Shown: positions 21,920-64,000 of the stretch, in pieces
Numbering within the stretch: position 1 is the stretch's first letter
Layout of the letters: the number at the start of each line of letters is the position of its first letter
Source of the DNA: Lingula anatina
Taxonomy: Eukaryota; Animalia; Brachiopoda
Reading direction: 5' to 3'
NCBI GenBank assembly: GCA_051362555.1
Contig: CM120641.1
Span: 21,266,001-21,330,000 of the forward strand
Length of the DNA stretch: 64,000 bases
The notes under the pieces: generated by a model
Told to the model about the DNA's origin: nothing
What the model saw: only the letters and a program-made list of their open reading frames with translations
The model's database searches: none
Translations under genes and position numbers: made by a program

Positions 21920-22171
21920 GGCTTCGTTCACATGCAATGTCTATTTTCTATTTTCTATTTTCGGTATGTCTTATGATCACGGTCTGTGCACTGAATATCC
22001 CGCGGCGTAATTACTGGCAGCGCGAGCCAGTTACTATAAGTTACTATAAGTAACTGGCTCGCGCTGCCAGTAATTACGCGGCGGGATATTCAGTGCACAG
22101 ACCGTGATCATAAGACATACCGAAAATAGAAAATAGAAAATAGAAAATAGACATTGCATGTGAACGAAGCC
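21920..22171. mobile_element. Fully palindromic MITE, PIF/Harbinger (Tourist)-like
   Basis: Arms of about 115 bp are near-perfect inverted copies (GGCTTCGTTCACATGCAATG...CATTGCATGTGAACGAAGCC). The element is flanked by a TAA target duplication (21917-21919, 22172-22174). Confidence 0.85.
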
Positions 22172-40214: not shown

Positions 40215-43200
40215 TCATTCTTCATTTCTTGGGGTCAACTTTATCCAAATCCCATGCTCAGGACGCAGGATGATTTCACTCACTGGGCGAAGTTCTTCAC
40301 GTTTTTGGGTTGATGTCATGTTGAATTTTCTTAACATGGCAGACAGCATGACTTTCTCTTCCATTATGGCAAATTTTTGGCCTATAATAAATCATAATAG
40401 TAAAACTATACATCAGCAAGTTTGAACAAGCCAGCTAAAGCCGAGACAGGCAACCTTACCAACCGTACCAATAAACATGGGACATTGATAAAATATAACA
40501 GCAATATACAAACTTTGGGACTTGACACCCAATGACAAAAAACTACTGCTAACCAACATTATTGAAAGAAATATTGAAACACGAAAAATAATCCAGCTAG
40601 TTTTCCAGCTCAAGTTGCATATAAGTCCCATGAATCATTGATGTAAGTTTGAGAACATTTAGTATCACAATTTCCACTTTCTTTTATTTTTGGCAATTTT
40701 GCAACATTACGTAATGGTTAACAGCATAATCACCCCCACTTTTTTCCATGTACTACTTTAATTATTGGCACCTAAAAAATGTAACTGGCTCCAGGCTTAT
40801 GAGAGTTCAAAGTCATGCATTGAAAATATCAATGACATGGGAAAACTGCCTGTCCAACTGGTCATGGGCACTTGACTTGCCAGAGGACCTGCAAGATTTT
40901 TGATATTGCAGGTCCTCTGGACTGGAAAGGTTTATTTGAAAATAATATACATATTAGTAAATCACATGTGAACTAAGAGATAATTAGTGACTATCATACT
41001 TACTTTGGATCGAACTATCTCCATGGGGATTCTCACTTAACTACACTTAACTTAAGCGGCTTAGATGTCTGTCACACCTACTGAAGCTGATAGGGGGTAA
41101 TTAACTATCATTTAGCAGCTTCAGTAGGCGTCCCACACATCTAAGCCACTTAAGCTGAAAGCAATTTAGTGAGAAACCCCGTGGAGATGGAGATGGACCT
41201 ATCCTGTTAGATTGATATAGGTATGGGAACCCAGTCTAAGTTTAACAGAAATTAAATACTTAGTCCAAACTTCCACAGAATGAGGAGGACCTGCAGATTT
41301 CTTGTAATGAAGGTCCACTGGACCTTCATTATCTCCAAAGTTCTTCCCATATCTGGACACATTCACAAAAATTGAAGAAAAATTTAAGAAAAATACCCAA
41401 TCACTTTGGTTTCTGAACCTGTGCTGCATTTTTGTCCGTTGAGTGTACGATGACAGTGACGGCAACAAAATGCAGGCGTTAGCCTTATGTCCAGACACGA
41501 AGTGCATGTCCATAAAAAGTATTTTCATTTCTAAATTCTAAGACATTTCTCAACTACCAGCCCTATTCATCCTTAAAGAAAATTTCACGAGAGTGTCGCA
41601 TTTTACCCAAGGCTCAATTAAATACAGATTTTTAAACTAGATGTATTAGATGCATAAATGTGATTCTCCTGATTCTTACCAATGCAGTTCCTCATTCCTG
41701 CGGAAAAGGGAGTGTAACTGTACGGGTGTCTCTTACGCGTGTTTTCAGTCAGGAATCGATCAGGATCAAACTTTTCAGGATCAGGGAAATACTTGGCATC
41801 CCGATGTAGAGCTGTCACAAGAATAATACCTTCAGTTCCCTTTGGAATCTTGAAACCTTCTGAATGATAAATATATTTTCATTTGAATATTTTGACAAAA
41901 TGTGAACAAGACCTTTTCCAAAAATTAAAACTTCTCTCTTTTTCAGGCATTTTGCTCAGATGATATACAAGTCATACATATAATACACACCACAGGGTAT
42001 TAAAGGTATACAAGCCTTATTAATCAATTTTATTAGTAAAAAAAAAATTCCTAAAAATGTCAACACCATCTGCTTAATCACCATGCATGGTGTACCACAT
42101 CCAAAACTATTAAAAAAATTATGATCTAAGTGTTCTAAGTTTCTAATTCTTGAGCCACTCTTGTTATTTGAGATAAATAATGGCAAATGACACTTGTGAT
42201 GGTATAAACTGGAAATATATGTACAATAACCAGATTCTTACTGATCTCACAATCCTCAGTGAAGGTTCTGGCATGAAAAGGCACTGATGGGTATATGCGT
42301 AAGGCTTCCTAAAGTTAGAAATAAAATTCTTTATGAAAAAAAAAATCCAAACAATTTAAAACTTAAAATTTGTCAATGAATTATCATTTACAAAATCAGA
42401 AGTGCGTTAATAAATACGACAGATACACGAAATTACTTTGTTATGTAATTACCATTCATAATTTCATATCCATGTGGCAACAAACTGAATGGCAAAACAA
42501 AACATGTATTTTCACTCTTTGACATAGCACAGTGAGATAAACAGTGGCTAGTGTACCAGCAACTACTGTTCCTTTAGTTTTTAAAGTGTTAAAACATTCG
42601 TTCCCTATCTACCTTAACTTGGGCACACAAAGTTATAATACATACCTTAATCACACATTCCAAGTACTTCATTTGTGCAATATCTTGTGGTGTAGCTCTT
42701 CTGTCGCTGTCACCTAAATTCACATAAAACCTACATGACCTTTGATGATTGGCAAATTTTTAAAAACCATTACTTTTAAGGAAAGAAAAAACTGTATTAA
42801 ATAACATTTCAGTCTACTCAATCTACTCAATAAAAGCATCACGTCTCTTTATAGAGTGTAACTGAACATTTAAAATCAAAGTGCATGGTCTTTAAAATAT
42901 GGATACCAAATATGCTGTCCATCTCTTCATGGAGCTTTTGCTGAACTTCTGGGTAAGCGCCAATAAAATAACTGGCCCAGGTCACCCCTGCTGCTGTGGT
43001 ATCATGGCCCTTAAAAATGAAGAAACAGTATACTGATTTTGAGAGAAGAAATCTGATGAAGTTCACTTCCTGTCAACAGTTCTCATTAATAGATATACAG
43101 TAAACAAAACTTTTATGAATACAGGGGTACTTCTTTTTCCTTTAGTAAGGTGAAAAGGTACATCAGTTTCTTTTAAAATTTTTACTTCAGGCAGGGTGTC

Positions 43201-50700: not shown

Positions 50701-53700
50701 GTAAGTCCCCCCATACAGTCCAAGGGACAATAAAGAAGACCTTTATCATCTTAACTCTCTCATTTGAGCAGATGCCACAAACAGGTTTAAAGCCTATATA
50801 TATATAAATTAAAGTGTGTGAGAAGAAATGTAAAAACAAAGTTCATCCAAATTTTGCAGGTTCTGAATAAAATATCTACTGTTTGACTGGAAGCAAAGAT
50901 AGCACTAGGACATGTGATATTTGATGAAAAAGATGCTTGTTTATACGGCTTTCAGTTTCACTTAAGGCATCCCTTGGCTTGAAACGTAATGTGGTTGTGG
51001 GCAGCTATCCTATCTTTAAATCTGCTGCATATTGTACTTCCCTGCATTAACCTTAACCATTGTTATTGTATTGCTTAATTTTGAACATTTACAAAGAAAG
51101 ATAGCAGCAGCAAAATGTTTTTAACAGTGTCTTGATATAATAGAAAAAAATCGATCAGTTTTCAGTGTTTCCACATATACTTCATTCAAAGTTAAACACT
51201 GTGGGTGCAGCACACAAGACCCAAGGGGAAGGGGTATAGGGAGACATGGGGGGGATGGGGGGGGGGGGGGGTCAATATTTGTACTCTTAGATGTGAGAAC
51301 CACCTCCTGTATCCCATTATGAATGGAATTGTTTTTTTTTTCCCTCTGTACCAATAGATTTGTCCTAATCAGTGTTTTTATTACAGGGAATTTTGAGATG
51401 CATGGTTTTGTTAGAATTTCCATTAGCAATGATATCATAGTAGTTTGTGACCGTATAATCCATTGTAACATGGTACCTTGCTCAGCATTTGTTATCTGAT
51501 ACATTCAGTGGTGACATCTTTTTAAGGTTCTCTTCGAACTTTTTGTATCATCTTGCACAAATCAACTAAAAACTGTTAATGCTTCTTTTTGCCACATACA
51601 CTTTTATTATTTATAGTGTGCACAAATTTGGGCACTTAAACTTTAATGCATAAATGATATTGAGAAAGATAATAAAGGAGTTGCATAGACTGAGTAAACC
51701 CAAAATATCTTAGGCAATAAGTTAATTTGTTCATTCCATAAATGTGATTGAAATAATAAAAGCAAAGCCACACTAAGCAAATCTTATTGCTTTGTATAGT
51801 TTGTACCATTGGTCTACTGTTGACCTCTAATTTCGTCTGTGTGTTGTTGAATGATTTTGACAGCGGATTTTATTTTTGTTTTTAGGTTTATGATCAAGTT
51901 AAAAAGAAGTATGACATATATGACAAGAAGTTTGGCAGATCTTTAACAGAAGTGGAGGTTCTAACCAAAGGTGAGAGTCAAACTTGGATTTATGTACTGA
52001 CAGTCAATGAAAACGCATCAGAAAACTTTCTTGTACTTTTTTACCAAGAATCGATTCCAACCATGTAAAGGAGTACAAATGCACTTGTTTGGTCATAAGA
52101 GAGTGGGCTGACCACTCAGATGTTTAAAATTTCCGCTTCAGTGATTTTGTGATCAGCTGTTACAAAATCGTGTGTTATCCTGTCTCGTGATTGGTGTGAA
52201 TTAATCAGGTTCAATATATGGTGATTAATTAAGCCTTTTTAAGCTAGTCACCAAATGCAGTATGACACATGACAAAAAACTTCAGTTATGCCACGTCTGA
52301 CACTGGAAGAGCGACTGCGGGCCCTGGGGATGTTGGAGGCTGGGTGGAACCAAAGAGATTTGATCATGTGACCTTGCATTTTAATGATCTTTTCTGACCT
52401 TTATTTCACCTTGTGTGACTGAATAATGGGTGATATTTCACATGAAAACTGTTATTTTCTTAATGTGCTGAAGGAACTTAAAATATTATTTGATAAATAA
52501 ATGATGCATTTTCATTGACTGTCAGTATATGTACAAAAAGTAAGATGACAAATACCCTCTCTTCAGAGGATTAGTTATCTGGCCTACCTAACTACCAGAT
52601 GTGGCACTGAAAGATCCAGAATTTACCATAGATTGGATCAGGTTACCGGTTTACAAGGTGTGTATCAGTACACGCTTGGAAGTGTCAGACACGGAACGAG
52701 CACCAGGCAAGAGGGTGGCACATCTGACACTTCGAAGAACGTAATGATACACACCTTGAAAAACGATAGAGTGATGCGATCAACGGTAAACTCTGGATCC
52801 TTCTGTGCTGCGTCTGGTAGTTGGGTAGGCCTGGTTATGTTGTTACCACTCAAACTTTTGAGGAACAATCCACATACAATGCATGTGAAAAAATTCCTGG
52901 AAATTATACAGGTTTATTATTCATCAAAGCATACGGTATGCAAAACTATATGTATGCCAGTTTTCTATTGTAAATGTTGAAATTTTACTGTCAAGTATGA
53001 AATTTATCAGTCTCCATCTCCATTGCAAGAGTGACTCTTTTTTACAACTAAAAAAAAATGGTTCATGAATTGCCTATCTGTGAACACTTTGATTATGGAT
53101 GCCTTGTTAATGAGAGGAAAGTTTTGAAATTTCCAGGAAAACATTCTTTGCTGTAACACCCAGTGTGTGCCTTTAGCGAAGTGTTTGTATTGATGGTATT
53201 CCAGTCTATCATTACACTCACTGTCCATTTAAAATGTTGCTCATTGGGTCAAACATTTTTTTCCACAAAACCAGCCCGTCTTATTACTTTGTCTTGTCTA
53301 ACCAGGTTTTGCAGCTTTTTTTGACAATGGTTATGGAATCCGGGTGGATGCTGTGAAAGCCATGATCAAAAAGTTGGAAGAAATAGAGAAGTGGTTTATG
53401 TCACCTTCAGGCCTATGTTTCTATGCAAGTTCACTGTTGCTAGTATATGATGGAGAGAGAACCAGCACAGGCAAAACAGATGAGGAAGTATCTGATGGCA
53501 TTGACTATATCAAAGAAACAGACTGTGCTTGTACCCCTGAAGTGGCTGGCTGTGTAAATCAGTGTCAGCTTGCCATGGACTTAGAATGCCCAGTTGCTGT
53601 GAAAATGATCGATTTTGCTCATGTCTTTCCTGCAAGTGGTCTGGATGAAAATTATTTAACAGGACTGCGCAGTTTAATAGCATATCTCCACAGAGTACTG

Positions 53701-53709
53701 GAACTTTGA
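47706..53709 (+). CDS. IPMK: Inositol polyphosphate multikinase, 5 coding exons per isoform (exon 3 duplicated), 344 aa
   Basis: Exons 47706-47895, 48331-48513, [49775-49947 or 50528-50700], 51886-51970 and 53306-53709. Motifs HQVAGH, PPRGxRExxFY, PCxxDxKxG, YASSLLLVYD and MIDFAH are present. Confidence 0.93.
49775..49947 (+). CDS. IPMK: IPMK alternative exon 3a (mutually exclusive)
   Basis: 173 nt, TTTCAG acceptor and GTAAGT donor, phase 1 to 0. Encodes VMYLVMEKVTQPFAEPCVCDLKMGARTHDPEATPAKIAREKAKYPFLENVGFQFQGYS. Confidence 0.88.
50528..50700 (+). CDS. IPMK: IPMK alternative exon 3b (mutually exclusive)
   Basis: 173 nt, CTTCCAG acceptor and GTAAGT donor, phase 1 to 0. Encodes VLYLRMDDICNTFSQPCIADTKIGPVTYDPDASQEKKKHELAKNSCLPIVGFQLCGLR. 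Confidence 0.88.
51997..52525 (+). mobile_element. Internally deleted Tc1/mariner element in IPMK intron 4
   Basis: 24-bp TIRs with 1 mismatch (CTGACAGTCAATGAAAACGCATCA), TA on both flanks, and a residual transposase start MPRLTLEERLRALGMLEAGWNQRD at 52288-52371 that resembles a Tc1-type N-terminal HTH. Confidence 0.85.
52576..52837. mobile_element. Long palindromic MITE-like element in IPMK intron 4
   Basis: Outer arms GGCCTACCTAACTACCAGA...TTTACC / GGTAAA...TCTGGTAGTTGGGTAGGCC and inner arms CAAGGTGTGTATCA...GAAGTGTCAGA / TCTGACACTTC...TGATACACACCTTG. Confidence 0.75.
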
Positions 53710-55065: not shown

Positions 55066-56671
55066 TCAGTAGTCTGGAGCTGGTGTCAGAAGAGTCTTGA
55101 TGAAGTCTGCATACTTAACTTGTCCATTTGGTTGGATCTTTGCCTCCCTGAATAATGCATCAACTGAAAATAAAAGTATTTGTGTAATGATCAAGAGTAT
55201 GAAATGAGAATCTGTAAATCACTACTTCAAATAAAACATTAGTTTTCATTTCAGTATTAACTTTGATAAATTGTGAAGGAACCAAATATGTTTTGACCGA
55301 TGGGAAGCATAGCAAAAGCAGAAGTTAAAATATATTCGTGTACAAGGATGCACAGTAACCACAACTCATACAAGAAACTAAAATAACATAATAAGTAAAC
55401 AAATTATTGTCAGTAGAAAAACACAACACATTTTCACCTTCTCTTTTGTTCAGTTTTTCCCCAAATTGTGTCAGAATATTCTTGACCTCCGATGCATTCA
55501 CGTATCCTCGTCGTTGAATATCATGTGACTGGAACGCTGCCACAAGTTCCTCCTGACACTTCTCATTCTGGGAATGTTCATGCATGATATCCAGGAAAGT
55601 GGCAAAATCAATCTTGCCCTCTGGAATTCAAAACAGGTAAGGAATAGAATAAATCTGAAGATAATAGTACATAACAGAGCTGATGAAATTCTTTTCAGAA
55701 TGAATCTTATTTTAGAGCGCTGAATGCTACAGTATTTATTCATGTTAATGAAGGTTTAAAACTGGATTGATTTTGGATCGTATCACTGAGTATTGATACT
55801 AGCAAAATTCTTAAGTAGTTTAATGTGGTTCTCAGAATCAGATCCCTTATCTATGCACAAAGCGATCACTTACTTTCTGACATGTAAATCATTAAATTAA
55901 ATTAATAATATGAAATTATTAATAGTTGAAAAGTTTTCATTCATGATAGTTTTACAGTATTTGAAATACCTGTTGACTGTTTCATCTGTTCACACTGACA
56001 GACTTGGTCACAATTGCTATCATATGTATCATAAATGATAACTTTTCAACTATCAAAAACTATTTTCACTTTTGAAATTATTAAGTCTAAAATATTATAC
56101 TAACCTTTCTGGTATTTTTTGTAATACGTTTGCAACTCTACAATGGTTGGGCTATAGCCTAATGATCTCATAATGATCTTTAACTCCTCTACATTGACAA
56201 TATGCCTTTGTCTTGCATAGAAGGAAAAACATTCCTTGAACTCTGAAAGAGATTAATATAACTTATAAGTAATCACAAGTTGTGAGTATTTTATTTTAAA
56301 ATAATAATTCATAAAATTTTAATTATGCCATTCAGACTTAAATGATTCAGTGATTGAAACAGTACATGAGATTTAGTCAAGAAATGTATCTTAACTGTTT
56401 AATTAGAAAAGAGTCTGCTTGGTTGGGAATTTAGGGCGTGTCCAACTTCGGCAGTGTACTGAATCAGTAACTCATCAGAATAAAATACTTATATCTCAAC
56501 GGGAAAACTATGCAATAAAATAACCAGTGAACCTGGTATTTGCACTTACCATCTATGTCACTCTTGCTAAAGAATCGGGCCTGAAAAGATAAAGAAATAT
56601 TTTAAGAGTTTTGATGCTGTTGCAGAGTTATAAAGTGAAAAATTAGAAATAAATGAAACGGTACTCACCAT
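55066..56671 (-). CDS. CALML4: Calmodulin-like protein 4, 5 coding exons, 150 aa
   Basis: Exons (-) 56671-56669 (ATG only, typical of calmodulin-family genes), 56580-56550, 56242-56105, 55620-55438 and 55163-55066. The protein MARFFSKSDIDEFKECFSFY...MRSLGYSPT...IDFATFLDIMH...GEKLNKREVDALFREAKIQPNGQVKY...PAPDY has degenerate EF-hands and CALML4-type termini. Confidence 0.9.
55922..56053. repeat. Short inverted-repeat element in CALML4 intron 3
   Basis: 27-bp arms with 2 mismatches (ATAGTTGAAAAGTTTTCATTCATGATA). Confidence 0.65.
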
Positions 56672-59450
56672 CTTGAATGATCCCGCACTTAATTATGTTT
56701 TGTAAATGTTTCTTATTTCAAATAAAATGTATTAAATGGTGTTATAAAAATAAAAAAATATTTGATGTATAGAAAAGATGTGTCAGTTAAAATCCCATTC
56801 ATTCAATTGAGTATTTGATGGAAAGAATTCAGGGTGACTTGAACGACCTTCACCTTTGAATTTATTCTGCATCAGTAGCTAACGCATTGGTTATTTACAG
56901 GAGTATTTACAAGATGAATAATAGTTTGAAGAAGATGTGAAAGTTAAACAATTTGATTCAGTACGAGAGGGTGCATCCATGTAAATGGTGAGCAAAGAAT
57001 TGAAATATTTTGAGATATCTATCTTACCATTCTATTTCTAACGTAAACGAATGTTTTCATTCAATTTCAAGTTGGCCATACCTACATGTAAGTCATGCCC
57101 TTCTGGGGACATCTGTTGCAATTTCCTACGTCTTGAGGGTGGTGGAAAGGAGCTATTTGATTTTAAAGTTTATGTGTTTTGTTCTTATCTGTGGCCATTT
57201 ATCATTGTTTCCAGATGGCCATACCTGAGTGAAGCCATTTATCCATTATGCTAGCTACTCCTACCTTGTGTAGCTGATACCATTCCCACTAGTTGTATGA
57301 TGTAATACTTATTTAGTTATGTAAGACCGAATTATGGCCATATAGATTAACTTCTTGATTTAGTAAATTTTCAATTATTTTCTCAATGATATTTTACAGG
57401 TGGGCCAATTTAGTACAGTATCATTAGGGATGTACATATGTATGTACCCCCATTACACCAATTGGGGGGGGGGGGGGGAGTCTTTGGAAAAATGATGTTA
57501 AATAGGTCAAAACATTATCTGTCTGTTTACAAGAAAGTTTTATAATTCACAAATGTATTCTTACAAAGTTGTTAGTTTTTTGTAATTGAAAGTTGTGCTC
57601 ATGATCAGTAAAGAATGTTACTTTTACAAAAGATGATTTCTTTTCTTCTTAAATCAAATGGTGAATGTGCCAGGTGCATGTCAAAAGAAGTCAAAATTAA
57701 GCGTAGGAATAAAATTCAAGACAATTTATGAACATTATATTCCAAAATTATTGAGATGCAAATTACTTTTTTAAAGAATGCAATTTTTGAAGTGTATCAA
57801 AATTGATACGAATGTACAATGGATATATGTGTAGCAGTTAGTATTTAACCAGAAAAATTTAATTACTAAAAAAAAAAAGAATCTATCCTTTTCTTGTCTA
57901 CTCTCAGTGAACACACAGGATTTCACCTGCATCAAGATATAACTTGAGCAGCTGCAGTCTATGATTTACATAAAATATAAGCTGAATATTAATAAAATTA
58001 CCAAAAATTATTATAATCTGTTTGAAATCTTTCTTATCATATTTATTTTTCTTTAAAACCAACCATGTTGGTTACCAATCGTCAGATATTTCCAGTTTTA
58101 TTCGCGCTGTTTTATCTTATATCAACATTATCTAATCAAATAGATAACATTCCAAAATTGTTAGGTGTTGAAAGAAATAGGTTCTATTGACTTTTGCATT
58201 TTAAAAACACATGTGTTTTATACTAACAGACAAAAATGAGATAAACTTGGAATTTCTTCAGGTGTTACCCTCTTATCTTTTTTCATTTATAAGAATACAT
58301 TTAGCTGTATATTTTTCAGAGATGTTAGTCCTAAATATCAAAGAATAACAAAGCGGGCTAATGTTGACATTTGAAACTTATCTTCATTTCAAAATGATAC
58401 TGTAGCCTCATATGGTTTCAAGATAATTAAGTATAAGATGTCAAAACCAAGTAATCATACTCACCCCTCCTTTACGGTCTTGTGAACGTGATGAGAGATT
58501 CATTTTTATACCTACATATGTGTAGGAATTGCTGGGACACAAACACACACACACACCCCTCTGATATAGCTGCCCTAATATGCAGTGTATCTATGCCTGG
58601 TATGCAGGATGGATGTACCTCACCAAGTGTAGATAAACCACAGGGCTGACATAGTAAACTTTGAACTCTGTACAGTCATTTGAATGAGATTAATGCCCCC
58701 TATTTTGTTTATGCCCCTCTGGTCACCCTTATTGTTTTATGGGTAGCATCTACTGAAGAGGCCAAGTCTAAGTTATGCACAATGTGTAAAGTTTGTGAGT
58801 TTTGCTCATGCCTATGCTAATGGTATAGACAAATCCATAGTAACTAGTTTTGTTGGTGTCCTGGTTTATAACTTGTGTATGACACTGTGGAATAGATAAG
58901 AGTGGGTTATACATGTGAGGACAAGTTAAAAGGTATAAATCCAGTTTAAAATTTTTATAGCATTTTGATAGTACAGATATGGTAAAAGAAGAAATCTTAT
59001 CAAGTAGTTAAACTATAAAAAAAGAATTGCTTTAGATGATAAGATTTGTTTGTTCATAAAATGGCTTCAAATTGTACTAACAGCGTGGGCACTGGGGGTA
59101 CTTGTGGTTTAACCAACCCATTATGTTTTTTAAGAAATCCATCTCATAGGTCGTCATGCTTTAAAATATACTTTATGAAAATTTGAACCTTCAAAAGGTG
59201 GTCATGCTTTAAGCTGCTCTTTTTAAAAATCTGAAAAGCGGGTAATATTTGGTTGATATGATCAACTGTGTTGCTTCAAATCTACATGTTGCAGGCAATC
59301 TAATTTAAGTGCTGAAATTTTCAGAAAAAGTCCATTTTTCCTGATTTATACCGAAAAAGCACTTTGTCCAAGAACAATGATTTATTTATTCATCTTTCTT
59401 TCAGATATGAATTCCAGTGTTCAATACGGGGTGTGATATGTGAAGCCACC

Positions 59451-62400
59451 ATGGCTTCTGTTAAGGACAACACACCTGGCCTGGGTAAGACTGATCTGAA
59501 ACTGGTCACTCCAGCAGTGACCAGGGGGGGCATCACACACATAGATGATGTGGGTCATGGAAAAGTGCATGATGAGGAGCATCATGAGGATGAATTCAAA
59601 ATTAGCCAAAAAGTAAGTGTTTTAGGTACAAATTGACTACTGGTGAGATAAAAGATTGTTAGAAATTTCCTTTTACCAATGTATGAAAATGTGATACTCT
59701 GACCACTATATTTGCCAGGCTTGACAGCCATTTGCTGTTATCAACAATATAATGATCAGAAGAACATTAATGATTAGTCAGTTGAGTTGCAAGCACAAAA
59801 TCTAAACTTGTTCATAAAGTGTCTTTATTGTACTTGGTATGCATTATTCATAACCTTCAGTTGTTTATCTGTTCTAATGGCACAATTTTTCAGGTGTCAA
59901 ATAAGTATAAAATTTTCACCTCCTTGACTGCGGGTGCTGTTGCTGGTGCTGTTGCAAAGACAACCATAGCCCCTTTGGACAGGACAAAAATAAACTTTCA
60001 AAGTTAGTTGCTTTGTGATATTGTTTTGCCTTCAAAGAATCTATAACCTCTCTCTGTCTGTCTGTCTGTGTCTGTATATAATTATCAAGTTCTCCAAATT
60101 AGTCAATCTACACAAAAAAATCTGACAAAAAATGATGCCAGAAATGTAGAGTAACAGTGTAGATTTTAATCATCGGTATAAATTTTTACTTCCAGTCTCA
60201 CAGACTCCATATTCCTACAAAGGAGCTTTCTTATTTATAAAGAATACTGTGAAGAATGAGGGGTTCTTCACGCTGTGGCGGGGTAATTCTGCAACCATGG
60301 CCAGGATTATCCCCTATGCTGCAATACAGTATGCTGCCCATGAACAGTGGAAACGATTGCTCAATCCAGAAAACAATAGGTAATGATGATCCAGTAAGGC
60401 AGAAAAGTATCAATCTAAACTTTGTGGTTATTTAAACTTCAAAAGCAAGAACTGTATAAAATTAAGACTTCAACTAATTTAACTCCTCACTTATTCTGAT
60501 GTATTACTTTTTCATGATTTATCACTTTTAGTTATTCATAAAAATGTGATTCACATAAACTCGATTTTCACTTATAAATCAATACACCTTAAGTGTTGCT
60601 TACACAGCATTTTTTCTGAAATTTATTTACTCATTTTCATTGTTTTTAATGAGTAATTACAATATCTTTGTTGAAAAACGTTTACCTTTTTGTTATACAC
60701 CTTTGAAATACAAATTTTAGATTATTGCATAATGTTAAAAAAAGCAGTGGACTTGTTTTGTTGACCACATTAATGAAACTCTTAATACATGAATTAAATT
60801 TTTTTTTAGAAGCATGCCTAGAAGTCTTCCGCCTGGCAGGCGATTTGTAGCAGGCTCTTTAGCAGGGATGACTTCTGTGGCTGCGACATACCCTTTAGAC
60901 ATGGTCAGGGCTCGAATGGCTGTCACGCTCAAATGCAGGTAGAACTTAACATTTGTAGTTGTGACCTTGACTGAAAAAAATCCTGGAGTACTTTTGGGCA
61001 ACTGATAGTGATAAATGTGGGGAAATGCATGCTGTGTTTGTACATTGTTGATAAAATGACTTGGAAGTCATGGGCTTTCAGAAGTTATTTTGCTATAAAG
61101 GAACTGTAACATTTTGTATGAAAATATGTTTGGGTTTTCTATTAAGATGTGGATTTGGTTTGTAGATACACTTGATATCTCAGTTTTACATGTCTGATTA
61201 AAAATGATGCCAAATAGATAACATTCACATACAATTTTTAAATATTTTTAAATTGAAAACCAAAAGTCACAAGATTCATCATAAATGATAATTTATTTGT
61301 TTTTAAAACTCTCGGGTATAAATATCACATTACTTGTATTACCCGAGCACATTCTTATATTCTTTTGAAAATCACCTCTAGGTATAAAAGCCTGTGGGAA
61401 GTTTTCTTCAAAATTTACCGAGAAGAAGGTATCCTCACATTATACAGAGGTTTCATACCTTCCTTTCTGGGAGCAGTTCCTTACTTAGGCACAAGCTTCT
61501 TTACTTATGAAACATGCAAGAAATTACTCTACGGTAAGAAATGATGATCTTTTCCAGTGTTGCGCAAATCAGTTGCTTTTGCCTGTGTGATTCAAGTCCT
61601 TGTCATCTCTTCCACTCCCCTCACTCATGAACTAACTGTTCTGTTCCATTTGTTTCAAACATGCAAATCAAACAGCAAAAAAGTTTTGTTTCCCCCGTAC
61701 TTACCCCAGTTTGAGCTTCTCTCTTTTAATGTGCTGGCACAGTAGTACCTGAACAAAGTGCAATCTTCACCCCTGTCCAGGTGCAGTTACTCAGCACACA
61801 AGATTTTCCTTGATATATGAACTGTGGCAGTTTGTCTGAACATTTGCCAGTTTAGGCTGGCTAGTTTGTCACGTTTGTCCCACCATATAAAAAAATTGAC
61901 TCTGAAAATTGCAGCAACAGAACTCGAGTTTCAATAGGAAACCAAGCACCCCCTGCATACTTTTCAAAATTCAGTGCCAGGCAATGCAGCTGATTTGCTT
62001 TAATTTTGGTAAAGTCTTTTCATCAGTACAGCCCTTCATTTCAGGTATCACAGTCTTTTTGAGGTGATTGTGAAAATTTACCAGGAAGAAGGAATCCGAA
62101 CTCTTTACAGAGGGTTTACGCCTACTGTACTAGGCTCAATTCCTTACTCAGGAACAAGTTTCTTTACATATGAAACAATGAAGAAAAATTATTTTGGTAA
62201 GAGTACCAGCCTGCGGCTTTGAGCTTGATGTACAAATAACATGTGATTGTAGTCCTTTACACAGGCATGAGATTGATATTTTTGTCTGAAAAATTGGAAA
62301 CAAGTTGGCAACGTAACTGCCCAAAAAGTTAAGTGGAAACATTAGTAAATTTGGAAAAATCTCATGTCTGCTCAAGAAACCTCACTGCAGTGGAAAATTT

Positions 62401-64000
62401 GAATTCGCTCCCTGCTAATGACTAACTAGATTATAAATAGTTAGTACAGGTTTCTTTGTAATTTTTGTTTTACTAAATATCAGTGTGCTTTTGAATCTGA
62501 ATTATGCACAGGCTGTGAAATGTCTTTGGTTGCACCTCATATTATATATGTTATTGTCCCTAACATATGTATTTATCCTCCTTTACACATTAAGACTATT
62601 TGGTGCATACTTATTTAATGTTTTATCCAGGCACAAAGTCTGCATAGGAACCATTTAGTCTCTGTGCTTGATAAAGAACTAACCTAATCAATTAATCCTA
62701 GGTGGTAAAGGTTTACAAGGTGTTACAGCATGAAGCCTATGTGGTCTTTAATATGAATGGTGTGCAGGGATTAAATGTTTCTGCTTATTGCACTTTATAT
62801 CATTTTACTTGCTCCTTATTTCAGTGTTCATTTCATTTTGCTGAAATGTCATAATGAATGTTTAGAGGCATCTCCATTTTATGTCAACCAATTATTGTTG
62901 GACAAGTTGAATATTTAAATGATGTGGTTACATTAATGTGTTCGTCCTGCAGTGGGGAAAGGGACAAACTTTGGGAAACCAACTGAATCAAACATTATTT
63001 GGGAACTTAATTCTCTCTTTGGTGATTTTTGACATCATTTCTTTTTAATCAGCATTTTGTAGTTGGACTTTAAGGGAATGTGTTTTCAAAGGTTTTTAAA
63101 AACATTTTACATTATTAAGCATGAAGGCATAGGGTGCTGCCTTTGGATCCCATAACTACTATGCAATATCATAATGTTTTACAGTTAATATGCAGATCAT
63201 CTTCACTGAATTGAATACCAAGGTTTTTGTGACAGTGCCAATTTGCTTGTAAATTCCCCCCGAGTAGCCCTCCCTTATATAAAAGTCAAGTTTTGAGTGG
63301 TTTGTTTTACAGAATACTCTGGTGGCAAAGATCCATCCGCCTACCAGAGGCTGTGTTTTGGTGCCCTGGCAGGTCTGTGCGGCCAGTCTGCCTCTTACCC
63401 TCTGGACATTGTGCGAAGGAGGATGCAAACTGCTGGTAAGGAACATTTGGTTTGGCAAAAAGAGATTGCCCAAAATGATCAAGTTCCGACTAAAAAGTCA
63501 TAATTTAAAAATTCGAGGTGACACAAGGAAACTCACAGGACAAAAACATCTTGAAATATGATATCATGACATATTTATTTTTGTGGAATTTCTTTGTGGT
63601 GTCTCACCATTATCTGTGCAGTATTCTTGGGGGGAAAAAAATCCCTACAGTTTGTGATCAGTGCAGTTTTTCTCATGGAACACTTCTTGAAATACTGATT
63701 TATTTTATCAGTAAATGTCAGTGGAGCATGATCCAGATGCTAATTTGCTAGTAAATAAGAACTTTAAGTAATTTACTTTGCTTTGGCTACATAGTTCATG
63801 TTTTTTTTTAGGTATAAACTGTCAGTATCTGTTTAATTTTTTAGGTGTCACTGGCAAAAGTAGTGAATACACAGGTATTATTAGAACAATGAGGAAAGTG
63901 GTCCAGGCAGAGGGAGTGATAGGGGGCCTTTACAAGGGACTTTCCATGAACTGGATAAAAGGACCCATTGCAGTGGGAATAAGTTTTACAACTTTTGAGA
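59451..64000 (+). CDS. SLC25A42: Mitochondrial coenzyme A carrier SLC25A42, 3' partial, coding exon 5 duplicated
   Basis: Perfect Kozak GCCACCATGG. Exons 59451-59612, 59894-60002, 60196-60379, 60810-60938, [61382-61533 or 62045-62196], 63313-63435 and 63845->64000. Carrier signatures PLDRTK, PLDMVR and PLDIVR, plus the SLC25A42-type [20 protein letters not shown] and [24 protein letters not shown]. Confidence 0.93.
61382..61533 (+). CDS. SLC25A42: SLC25A42 alternative exon 5a (mutually exclusive)
   Basis: 152 nt, CTCTAG acceptor and GTAAGA donor, phase 2 to 1. Encodes [50 protein letters not shown]. Confidence 0.88.
62045..62196 (+). CDS. SLC25A42: SLC25A42 alternative exon 5b (mutually exclusive)
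   Basis: 152 nt, TTTCAG acceptor and GTAAGA donor, phase 2 to 1. Encodes [50 protein letters not shown]. Confidence 0.88.

Follow-up and report, generated by a model that had tools for sequence, protein, structure and literature searches.

The SLC25A42 gene at the end of the analysed stretch of DNA (64,000 nucleotides, hereafter the window) lies on the + strand and has seven coding exon positions, the fifth of which is present twice, as exon 5a and exon 5b. This arrangement raises the question of whether the two copies are used alternately and, if so, whether the two resulting carrier proteins differ. The reading preferred here, to which we assign a probability of roughly two in three, is that an old duplicate has been retained, that both copies are spliced to exon 4, one at a time, and that a major, family-like exon 5b is accompanied by a minor exon 5a, for which a different pore lining is predicted.

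Gene structure and the duplicated exon

Coding exon 1 (59451..59612) begins with the ATG at 59451 within an exon that starts at approximately 59405, and it agrees with the public protein models P0003 and P0123. RNA joints were found at either side of coding exon 2 (59894..60002) and at coding exon 3 (60196..60379), and coding exon 4 (60810..60938) provides the donor common to 5a and 5b. Exons 5a (61382..61533) and 5b (62045..62196) both encode residues 196-245, which comprise the matrix helix h34 and transmembrane helix 4. Coding exon 6 (63313..63435) provides the common acceptor, and coding exon 7 (63845..64000), likewise delimited by RNA joints, continues past the window edge; P0003 extends 18 residues beyond it. 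All of these exons are on the + strand.

The first-pass annotation, made from the sequence alone, had described 5a and 5b as two intact exons of 152 nt each with the same phase and 34 of 50 identical residues, and had noted that using both or neither shifts the frame. All of this could be reproduced, and the helix-4 strings given for the two exons are correct. Both copies have AG..GT ends and are identical at 105 of 152 nucleotides. With either 5a or 5b alone, the frame is open to the window end; inclusion of both leads to a stop at codon 253 and inclusion of neither to a stop at codon 242. The pair thus consists of two neighbouring exons that are homologous and agree in length and phase, the features by which tandem-duplicated mutually exclusive exons are recognised. 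The models P0003 (5a) and P0123 (5b) comprise 356 residues each, differ at 16 sites only and are both public, so automatic annotation already contains both forms.

The assignment to SLC25A42 was borne out by the best matches and by the motifs of helices 2, 4 and 6. Among the best 120 of 1351 matches, the specifically named animal proteins are SLC25A42, and these best matches, with top identities of 64-69%, come from bivalves, gastropods, a chiton, annelids and nemerteans. Helix 2 and helix 6 agree with the SLC25A42 consensus, and each isoform contains three Mito_carr repeats (PF00153). A tree of full-length proteins (28 rows) puts the protein with the protostomes, though not in the mollusc or sedentary-annelid groups; the source animal is probably a lophotrochozoan without a close relative among the listed proteins.

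An assembly artefact, in which two haplotypes had been placed in tandem, would also produce two copies of an exon. This explanation has practically no probability left, since it is refuted by divergence and reads: the copies have an identity of just 69%, no homology is detectable between their flanks (398 and 1189 of 2000 random pieces, respectively, score equally well), and within single runs both copies are found joined to exon 4 by reads. On the same flank comparison, a duplicated unit that included flanking intron was rejected. The intron between exon 4 and 5a and the intron between 5a and 5b have one weak match in common (1/200 shuffles).

Several features of the surroundings were recorded as well. 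A non-coding upstream exon of SLC25A42 lies at 56957-56986, where the loose ends of 59, 7, 8 and 59 RNA reads before 59404 match; in the window allele it contains an ATG immediately followed by a stop, and the consensus of RNA runs X4 and X2 has no such ATG. Exons of a calmodulin-like EF-hand gene, recognised by weak EF-hand matches and open reading frames, are located head to head with SLC25A42 on the - strand (55066-56252), and a promoter shared by the two genes is possible near 56600-56900. The EF-hand gene has as its tail-to-tail neighbour an inositol polyphosphate kinase gene (PF03770, E 4e-19), whose last coding exon is at 53302-53709 on the + strand. In exon 1 of SLC25A42, many molecule starts fall on a run of G at 59531 (18 in X1, 16 in X2), which is probably an effect of read trimming.

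Use of the two exons in RNA and a candidate switch

RNA reads were taken from four of nine runs with the same species label (X1, X4, X7 and X2), of which 6-25% of the reads were used, and a joint was listed only if it was covered by at least 3 reads from 2 starts within one run. The first-pass annotation had named the junctions that alternative use of the two exons should leave. On the upstream side, both were found: exon 4 is joined to 5a by 8 reads (X1 5, X4 0, X7 1, X2 2) and to 5b by 22 reads (X1 10, X4 2, X7 3, X2 7). On the downstream side, 5b is joined to exon 6 by 38 reads (X1 15, X4 6, X7 3, X2 14); the corresponding joint of 5a is absent from the joint table of all four runs and is represented only by short overhangs in X1, where six reads carry, ahead of exon 6, an overhang that matches the 5a end by consensus (median 13 nt, agreement 0.81). 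The public model P0003 joins 5a to exon 6, and X1 depth is about 8.6-fold up to the 5a end, without read-through into the intron. Neither a joint from 5a to 5b nor a skip joint from exon 4 to exon 6 is listed in any of the four runs, at low depth and with the threshold of three reads. Had three of the X1 reads at the 5a end continued into 5b, the joint should have been listed. It is likely that 5a and 5b are used one at a time, i.e. that they are mutually exclusive.

By depth, 5a accounts for 0.34 of the pair in X1, 0.02 in X4, 0.26 in X7 and 0.29 in X2. For the low share in X4, the comparison of 0 with 10 read-equivalents gives a rough p of 0.05, which is borderline, and junctions alone give a p of 1.0. 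Reads of X7 have many exonic differences from the window, yet they provide depth over 5a and the one joint from exon 4 to 5a mentioned above; the exon 5b of this run has the family residue L240.

The exclusivity might be apparent only, if double inclusion happens and the product is cleared by nonsense-mediated decay; any RNA pairing in the intron between the two copies would then be a chance inverted repeat. This alternative is possible, at well below even odds. It draws on the exon length of 152 nt, which is not divisible by three, a property of 60% of human clusters according to the available part of PMC5740500. In poly-A reads, a splicing block and decay are not distinguishable. The 38 reads from 5b to exon 6 exceed the 22 reads from exon 4 to 5b, and some joining of 5a to 5b could yield such an excess, which is not decisive because the counts of neighbouring junctions range from 29 to 123. 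In a double-inclusion transcript, a later junction follows 252 nt after the stop; in a skip transcript, the stop comes 19 nt past the final junction observed within the window. Provided that no exon follows exon 7, the skip form would escape junction-based decay, yet it was not seen, which points to control at the splicing step.

A candidate for such control is a predicted RNA duplex between a 5' arm, D (61561..61587, + strand), 27 nt past the 5a donor, and a 3' arm, S1 (61976..62001, + strand), which ends 43 nt before the 5b acceptor. With a predicted energy of -34.9 kcal/mol and a core pair probability of approximately 1.0, it is the strongest pair in the region from exon 4 to exon 6, and it joins both ends of the 511-nt intron between 5a and 5b. 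In a windowed scan, in which the duplex reached -33.0 kcal/mol, none of 40 dinucleotide shuffles was as strong; two of the 116 real tiles (511 nt each) taken from the window were, which leaves room for a chance inverted repeat, and the fold of the whole intron gave a z of -2.22 only (4/100 shuffles equal). The placement of the arms, however, argues against chance: they are close to the 5a donor and the 5b acceptor, S1 covers the YTRAY match at 61990-61994, which is the best 5b branch-site match, and this is where the R3R4 pairing of ATE1 acts (bioRxiv 2020.06.04.134791, as far as available). The tile scan also recorded inverted repeats elsewhere in the window, at 22010-22075 (-46.4 kcal/mol) and 41013-41192 (-37.1 kcal/mol); the former is a near-perfect 24-nt pair with a spacing of 18 nt and may represent a hairpin or the end of a small transposon.

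The 5a acceptor is weak, as judged from its sequence, and no YTRAY match is present within 188 nt upstream of it. A hairpin with an 8-bp stem is predicted over the expected 5a branch region (61311..61348, + strand); it is weak and was chosen post hoc (z -2.16; 6/200 shuffles equal).

In the preferred reading, exon choice would be controlled in two layers. In the first, the D/S1 duplex would hide the best 5b branch-site match and leave no more than about 70 unpaired nt between the 5a donor and the 5b acceptor; once the duplex has formed, a transcript would proceed from 5a to exon 6 and not to 5b; where the weak 5a acceptor is skipped over, 5b would win. In the second layer, transcripts that contain both exons would carry a premature stop and would be removed by nonsense-mediated decay.

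Other arrangements were considered as well. A docking element of the ATE1 or Dscam type requires competing partners, and just one strong partner was found: arm D has none at the 5a acceptor in the region from exon 4 to exon 6, and its second partner, located after 5b, reaches -24.2 kcal/mol and is not above background (next best -23.4). Two further pairings, one between 61950-61967 and 62753-62770 and one between the 5a acceptor and exon 5b (-15.4), do not exceed background either. Steric interference, in which a branch point lies less than about 50 nt from a donor, does not apply to the linear intron of 511 nt, whose first YTRAY match is 98 nt and whose best-placed matches are 456-466 nt from the donor; this distance could be reduced by folding alone. 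Competing pairing arms can arise by duplication of flanks, as described in a part of PMC6071210; this model is unsupported here because the flanks have no detectable homology. The intron after 5b contains a long, imperfect A+T-rich stem (62646-62668 / 62761-62783, -24.7 kcal/mol), which overlaps the possible partner site of 61950-61967.

Age of the duplicate and differences between the proteins

Between 5a and 5b, synonymous sites are saturated (dS 1.15, dN 0.27, dN/dS about 0.23), and four-fold sites are identical at 4 of 13 positions, which is near chance. None of 5000 simulated neutral copies retained 34 residues at a distance of 0.58, and none of 5000 did so at 1.15. The saturated dS, the low dN/dS and the neutral simulation together indicate an old duplicate under long purifying selection. 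Exon 5a contains no stop and no frameshift, agrees with the family at 19 of the 21 columns showing 90% conservation, and its sole read variant is synonymous; its sequence is also compatible with a recent relaxation. Trees of the exon alone cannot date the duplication, since the free tree places 5a and 5b apart without support and a clade of 5a and 5b is not rejected (p-AU 0.56, 25 rows). The first-pass annotation took 5b for the ancestral-looking and 5a for the derived copy, in keeping with a comparison to 115 orthologue rows (121 full-length rows minus two own and four divergent protist-like rows), of which 85 are nearer to 5b and 16 nearer to 5a, with 14 ties.

The differences between the isoforms had been proposed to cluster in helix 4. 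This holds for six of the 16, at 220-230; a further six lie in the matrix helix and loop (197-213) and four at 240-245. Residues were mapped by alignment to solved ADP/ATP carriers, with side-chain directions taken from the alignment and not from coordinates, and compared with 199 orthologue rows (211 proteins minus the own ones, fragments and four divergent rows), many of which are congeners. In this alignment, G225, residue 226, Y229 and residue 230 correspond to G192, I193, Y196 and R197 of TtAac, and residue 222 corresponds to S189. According to the available parts of PMC9226169, G192 and Y196 belong to contact point II, R197 is critical for substrate binding and a member of the cytoplasm-side Asn/Arg pair, and an S189A variant is non-functional without a defect in binding; what is available of PMC12410006 agrees on the ADP/ATP-carrier residues.

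The earlier suggestion that the isoforms differ at contact point II was weakened by this comparison. G225 and Y229 are the same in 5a, 5b and all 199 orthologue rows, and residue 226, which is A in 5a and S in 5b, is ordinary in either form in single-copy orthologues (A 10, S 46, V 141, I 2; n=199). The pointer was off by one helical turn, and the case for altered transport would rest on residue 230, which is L in 5a and in none of the orthologue rows (A 130, S 62, G 6, T 1; n=199). The analogy to the ADP/ATP carrier at 230 is one of position, not of function, because SLC25A42 has no charged residue there. F223 of 5a is found in 0/199 rows and S222 in 3/199, with T222 in 195/199. Bird, marsupial and coelacanth rows read PTILGVIPYAG in helix 4, and the human protein presumably reads PTVLGVIPYAG, as given in the first-pass annotation. 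The otherwise conserved proline before Y229 has been lost in several bivalve and other orthologues (P0043, P0053, P0061, P0073, P0075, P0080, P0083 and P0038), a lineage-specific change that adjoins contact point II.

It is conceivable that the exons are mutually exclusive but that the proteins transport alike, with 5a being redundant and kept by frame and fold and its odd residues representing tolerated drift. We give this possibility clearly less weight than the preferred reading. G225, Y229, G231 and the YETxKK gate motif are common to both isoforms, the profile score of 5a (126) is inside the range of single-copy orthologues (7/115 lower), larger helix-4 changes are tolerated in bivalve orthologues, and the isoforms of SLC25A3 were equal in one rescue assay (PMC13252106, in part). 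On the other hand, 5a has two residues unseen in 199 rows within 8 helix-4 positions, as opposed to 1/229 columns outside the exon, and full redundancy would probably have led to the loss of the copy before its synonymous sites became saturated.

Alternatively, selection on 5a might have been relaxed recently, or the exon might confer low activity; it would then act as a dimmer, such that its inclusion reduces the amount of functional carrier without providing a second specificity. The minor share of 5a in all four runs (0.02-0.34), its weak acceptor, the bulky residue at a pore position, the loss of T222 and one splice form of the Drosophila orthologue that showed no transport in liposomes (PMC7504413, as far as available) would fit such a role. 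It is nevertheless unlikely, given an intact reading frame, a dN/dS of 0.23, a read variant that is synonymous and a share of about one third of the depth in two runs. The predicted structure of the 5a protein (pLDDT 85.8, pTM 0.82) has the six-helix carrier fold and matches carrier structures, namely the ADP/ATP carrier and UCP1; no solved SLC25A42 structure was found among the structure matches.

Under the preferred reading of two alternately used exons, the 5a protein, which retains all carrier motifs, would still be an exchanger of CoA, dephospho-CoA and PAP, and a shift in rate or affinity would come chiefly from L230, which replaces a small residue at the cytoplasmic side of the binding site. 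It is tempting to go further and to speculate that an RNA duplex switches a CoA-carrier gene between two substrate preferences, with 5a favouring dephospho-CoA, PAP or ADP over CoA through L230; we consider this version doubtful. If it were true, the animal would tune mitochondrial CoA traffic through splicing, and SLC25 carriers of marine invertebrates would repeatedly have acquired new specificities by duplicating the exon for helix 4 (contact point II). With just 16 differing residues around helix 4, the two natural proteins already amount to a swap experiment, for which residue 230 is a precise candidate, and the predicted duplex is a mechanism of exon choice in a little-studied animal lineage that can be tested with minigenes. 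L230 and the predicted duplex are what this analysis adds; if both proteins behave alike, the pair adds one case to the ordinary duplicated exons, and public gene models contain it already.

Distribution of the pair and comparison with known systems

No second version of the helix-4 exon was found in any species among 93 listed members of 20 clusters and 11 oyster members, several of the cluster members being fragments outside the exon. Tubulanus and Lineus proteins annotated as isoforms X1/X2 differ by an N-terminal insert only. A tandem exon copy was likewise absent from 52 exon-matching metagenome loci (80 loci kept of 241), a scan of little power because only 3 loci had intron-split genes. 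With exon 5a alone as query, a weak search with 3 candidates, the sole match was the window's own protein, and with residues 186-256 as query, none of 75 proteins from 77 candidates was 5a-like. The exon pair is likely restricted to its own lineage, judged against species that include no close relative. Among the more distant sequences, the protist-like relatives P0056, P0066 and P0076 are about 590-620 residues long, and the metagenome locus L065:655-2158 contains two similar helix-4 stretches 1.4 kb apart, which suggests fused double carriers.

No published account of duplicated exons in SLC25A42 was found, though supplements, exon catalogues or MetazExp could hold the event, and PMC10027655 treats SLC25 intron positions without mention of this pair in the part available. 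The pair in the window is a real, expressed and old duplicated exon pair, i.e. a known splicing device in a gene without a published case found.

The device itself is standard, and SLC25A3, with its tandem mutually exclusive exons, is the textbook case (PMC5740500, PMC8373072, PMC7226361 and PMC13385207, each in part). Exons 3A and 3B of vertebrate SLC25A3, rightly invoked as a precedent in the first-pass annotation, are two homologous exons of one SLC25 gene that are used alternately, there with a tissue bias (parts of PMC7226361, PMC5740500 and PMC13252106). SLC25A3, however, belongs to another subfamily and was studied in another phylum, its exon pair covers the first part of the carrier (common position 14 is the site of a 3A mutation; PMC7226361, in part) and not helix 4, and its isoforms have been assayed, whereas 5a and 5b are known from sequence and RNA. 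The SLC25A3 isoforms are distinguished by tissue and by a slight difference in phosphate affinity, and either one rescued myotubes (PMC13252106, a preprint, in part).

Drosophila dPCoAC (CG4241), a CoA and dephospho-CoA carrier, is the SLC25A42 orthologue in flies and corresponds to the gene described here by best matches (64-69%) and motifs. According to the available passages of PMC7504413, the fly protein prefers dephospho-CoA, liposome activity varies among its splice forms, and one residue has been linked to the choice between CoA and dephospho-CoA, the determinants of which are known in part only; unlike the situation in the window, these passages do not attribute the fly forms to duplicated exons.

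With regard to control, the D/S1 duplex resembles the R3R4 pairing of ATE1 exons 7a and 7b, in which an element in the inter-exon intron pairs with the acceptor region of the downstream exon, and breaking R3R4 raises the downstream exon (bioRxiv 2020.06.04.134791, in the parts available). In ATE1, however, the same element also pairs with the acceptor of the upstream exon (R1R3), and the pairings are conserved and mutationally proven, whereas the SLC25A42 duplex is a prediction from one sequence. Since no R1-like partner was found at the 5a acceptor, an ATE1-like switch is only half present.

The pair also resembles tandem exon duplication substitutions in general, which, like 5a and 5b, involve homologous exons of equal length and the same phase within a folded domain. 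The pair described here does not differ from them in kind; in the available parts of PMC8373072 and PMC5740500, where SLC25A42 is not named as a case, tandem duplicated exons are enriched in Drosophila transporters and channels.
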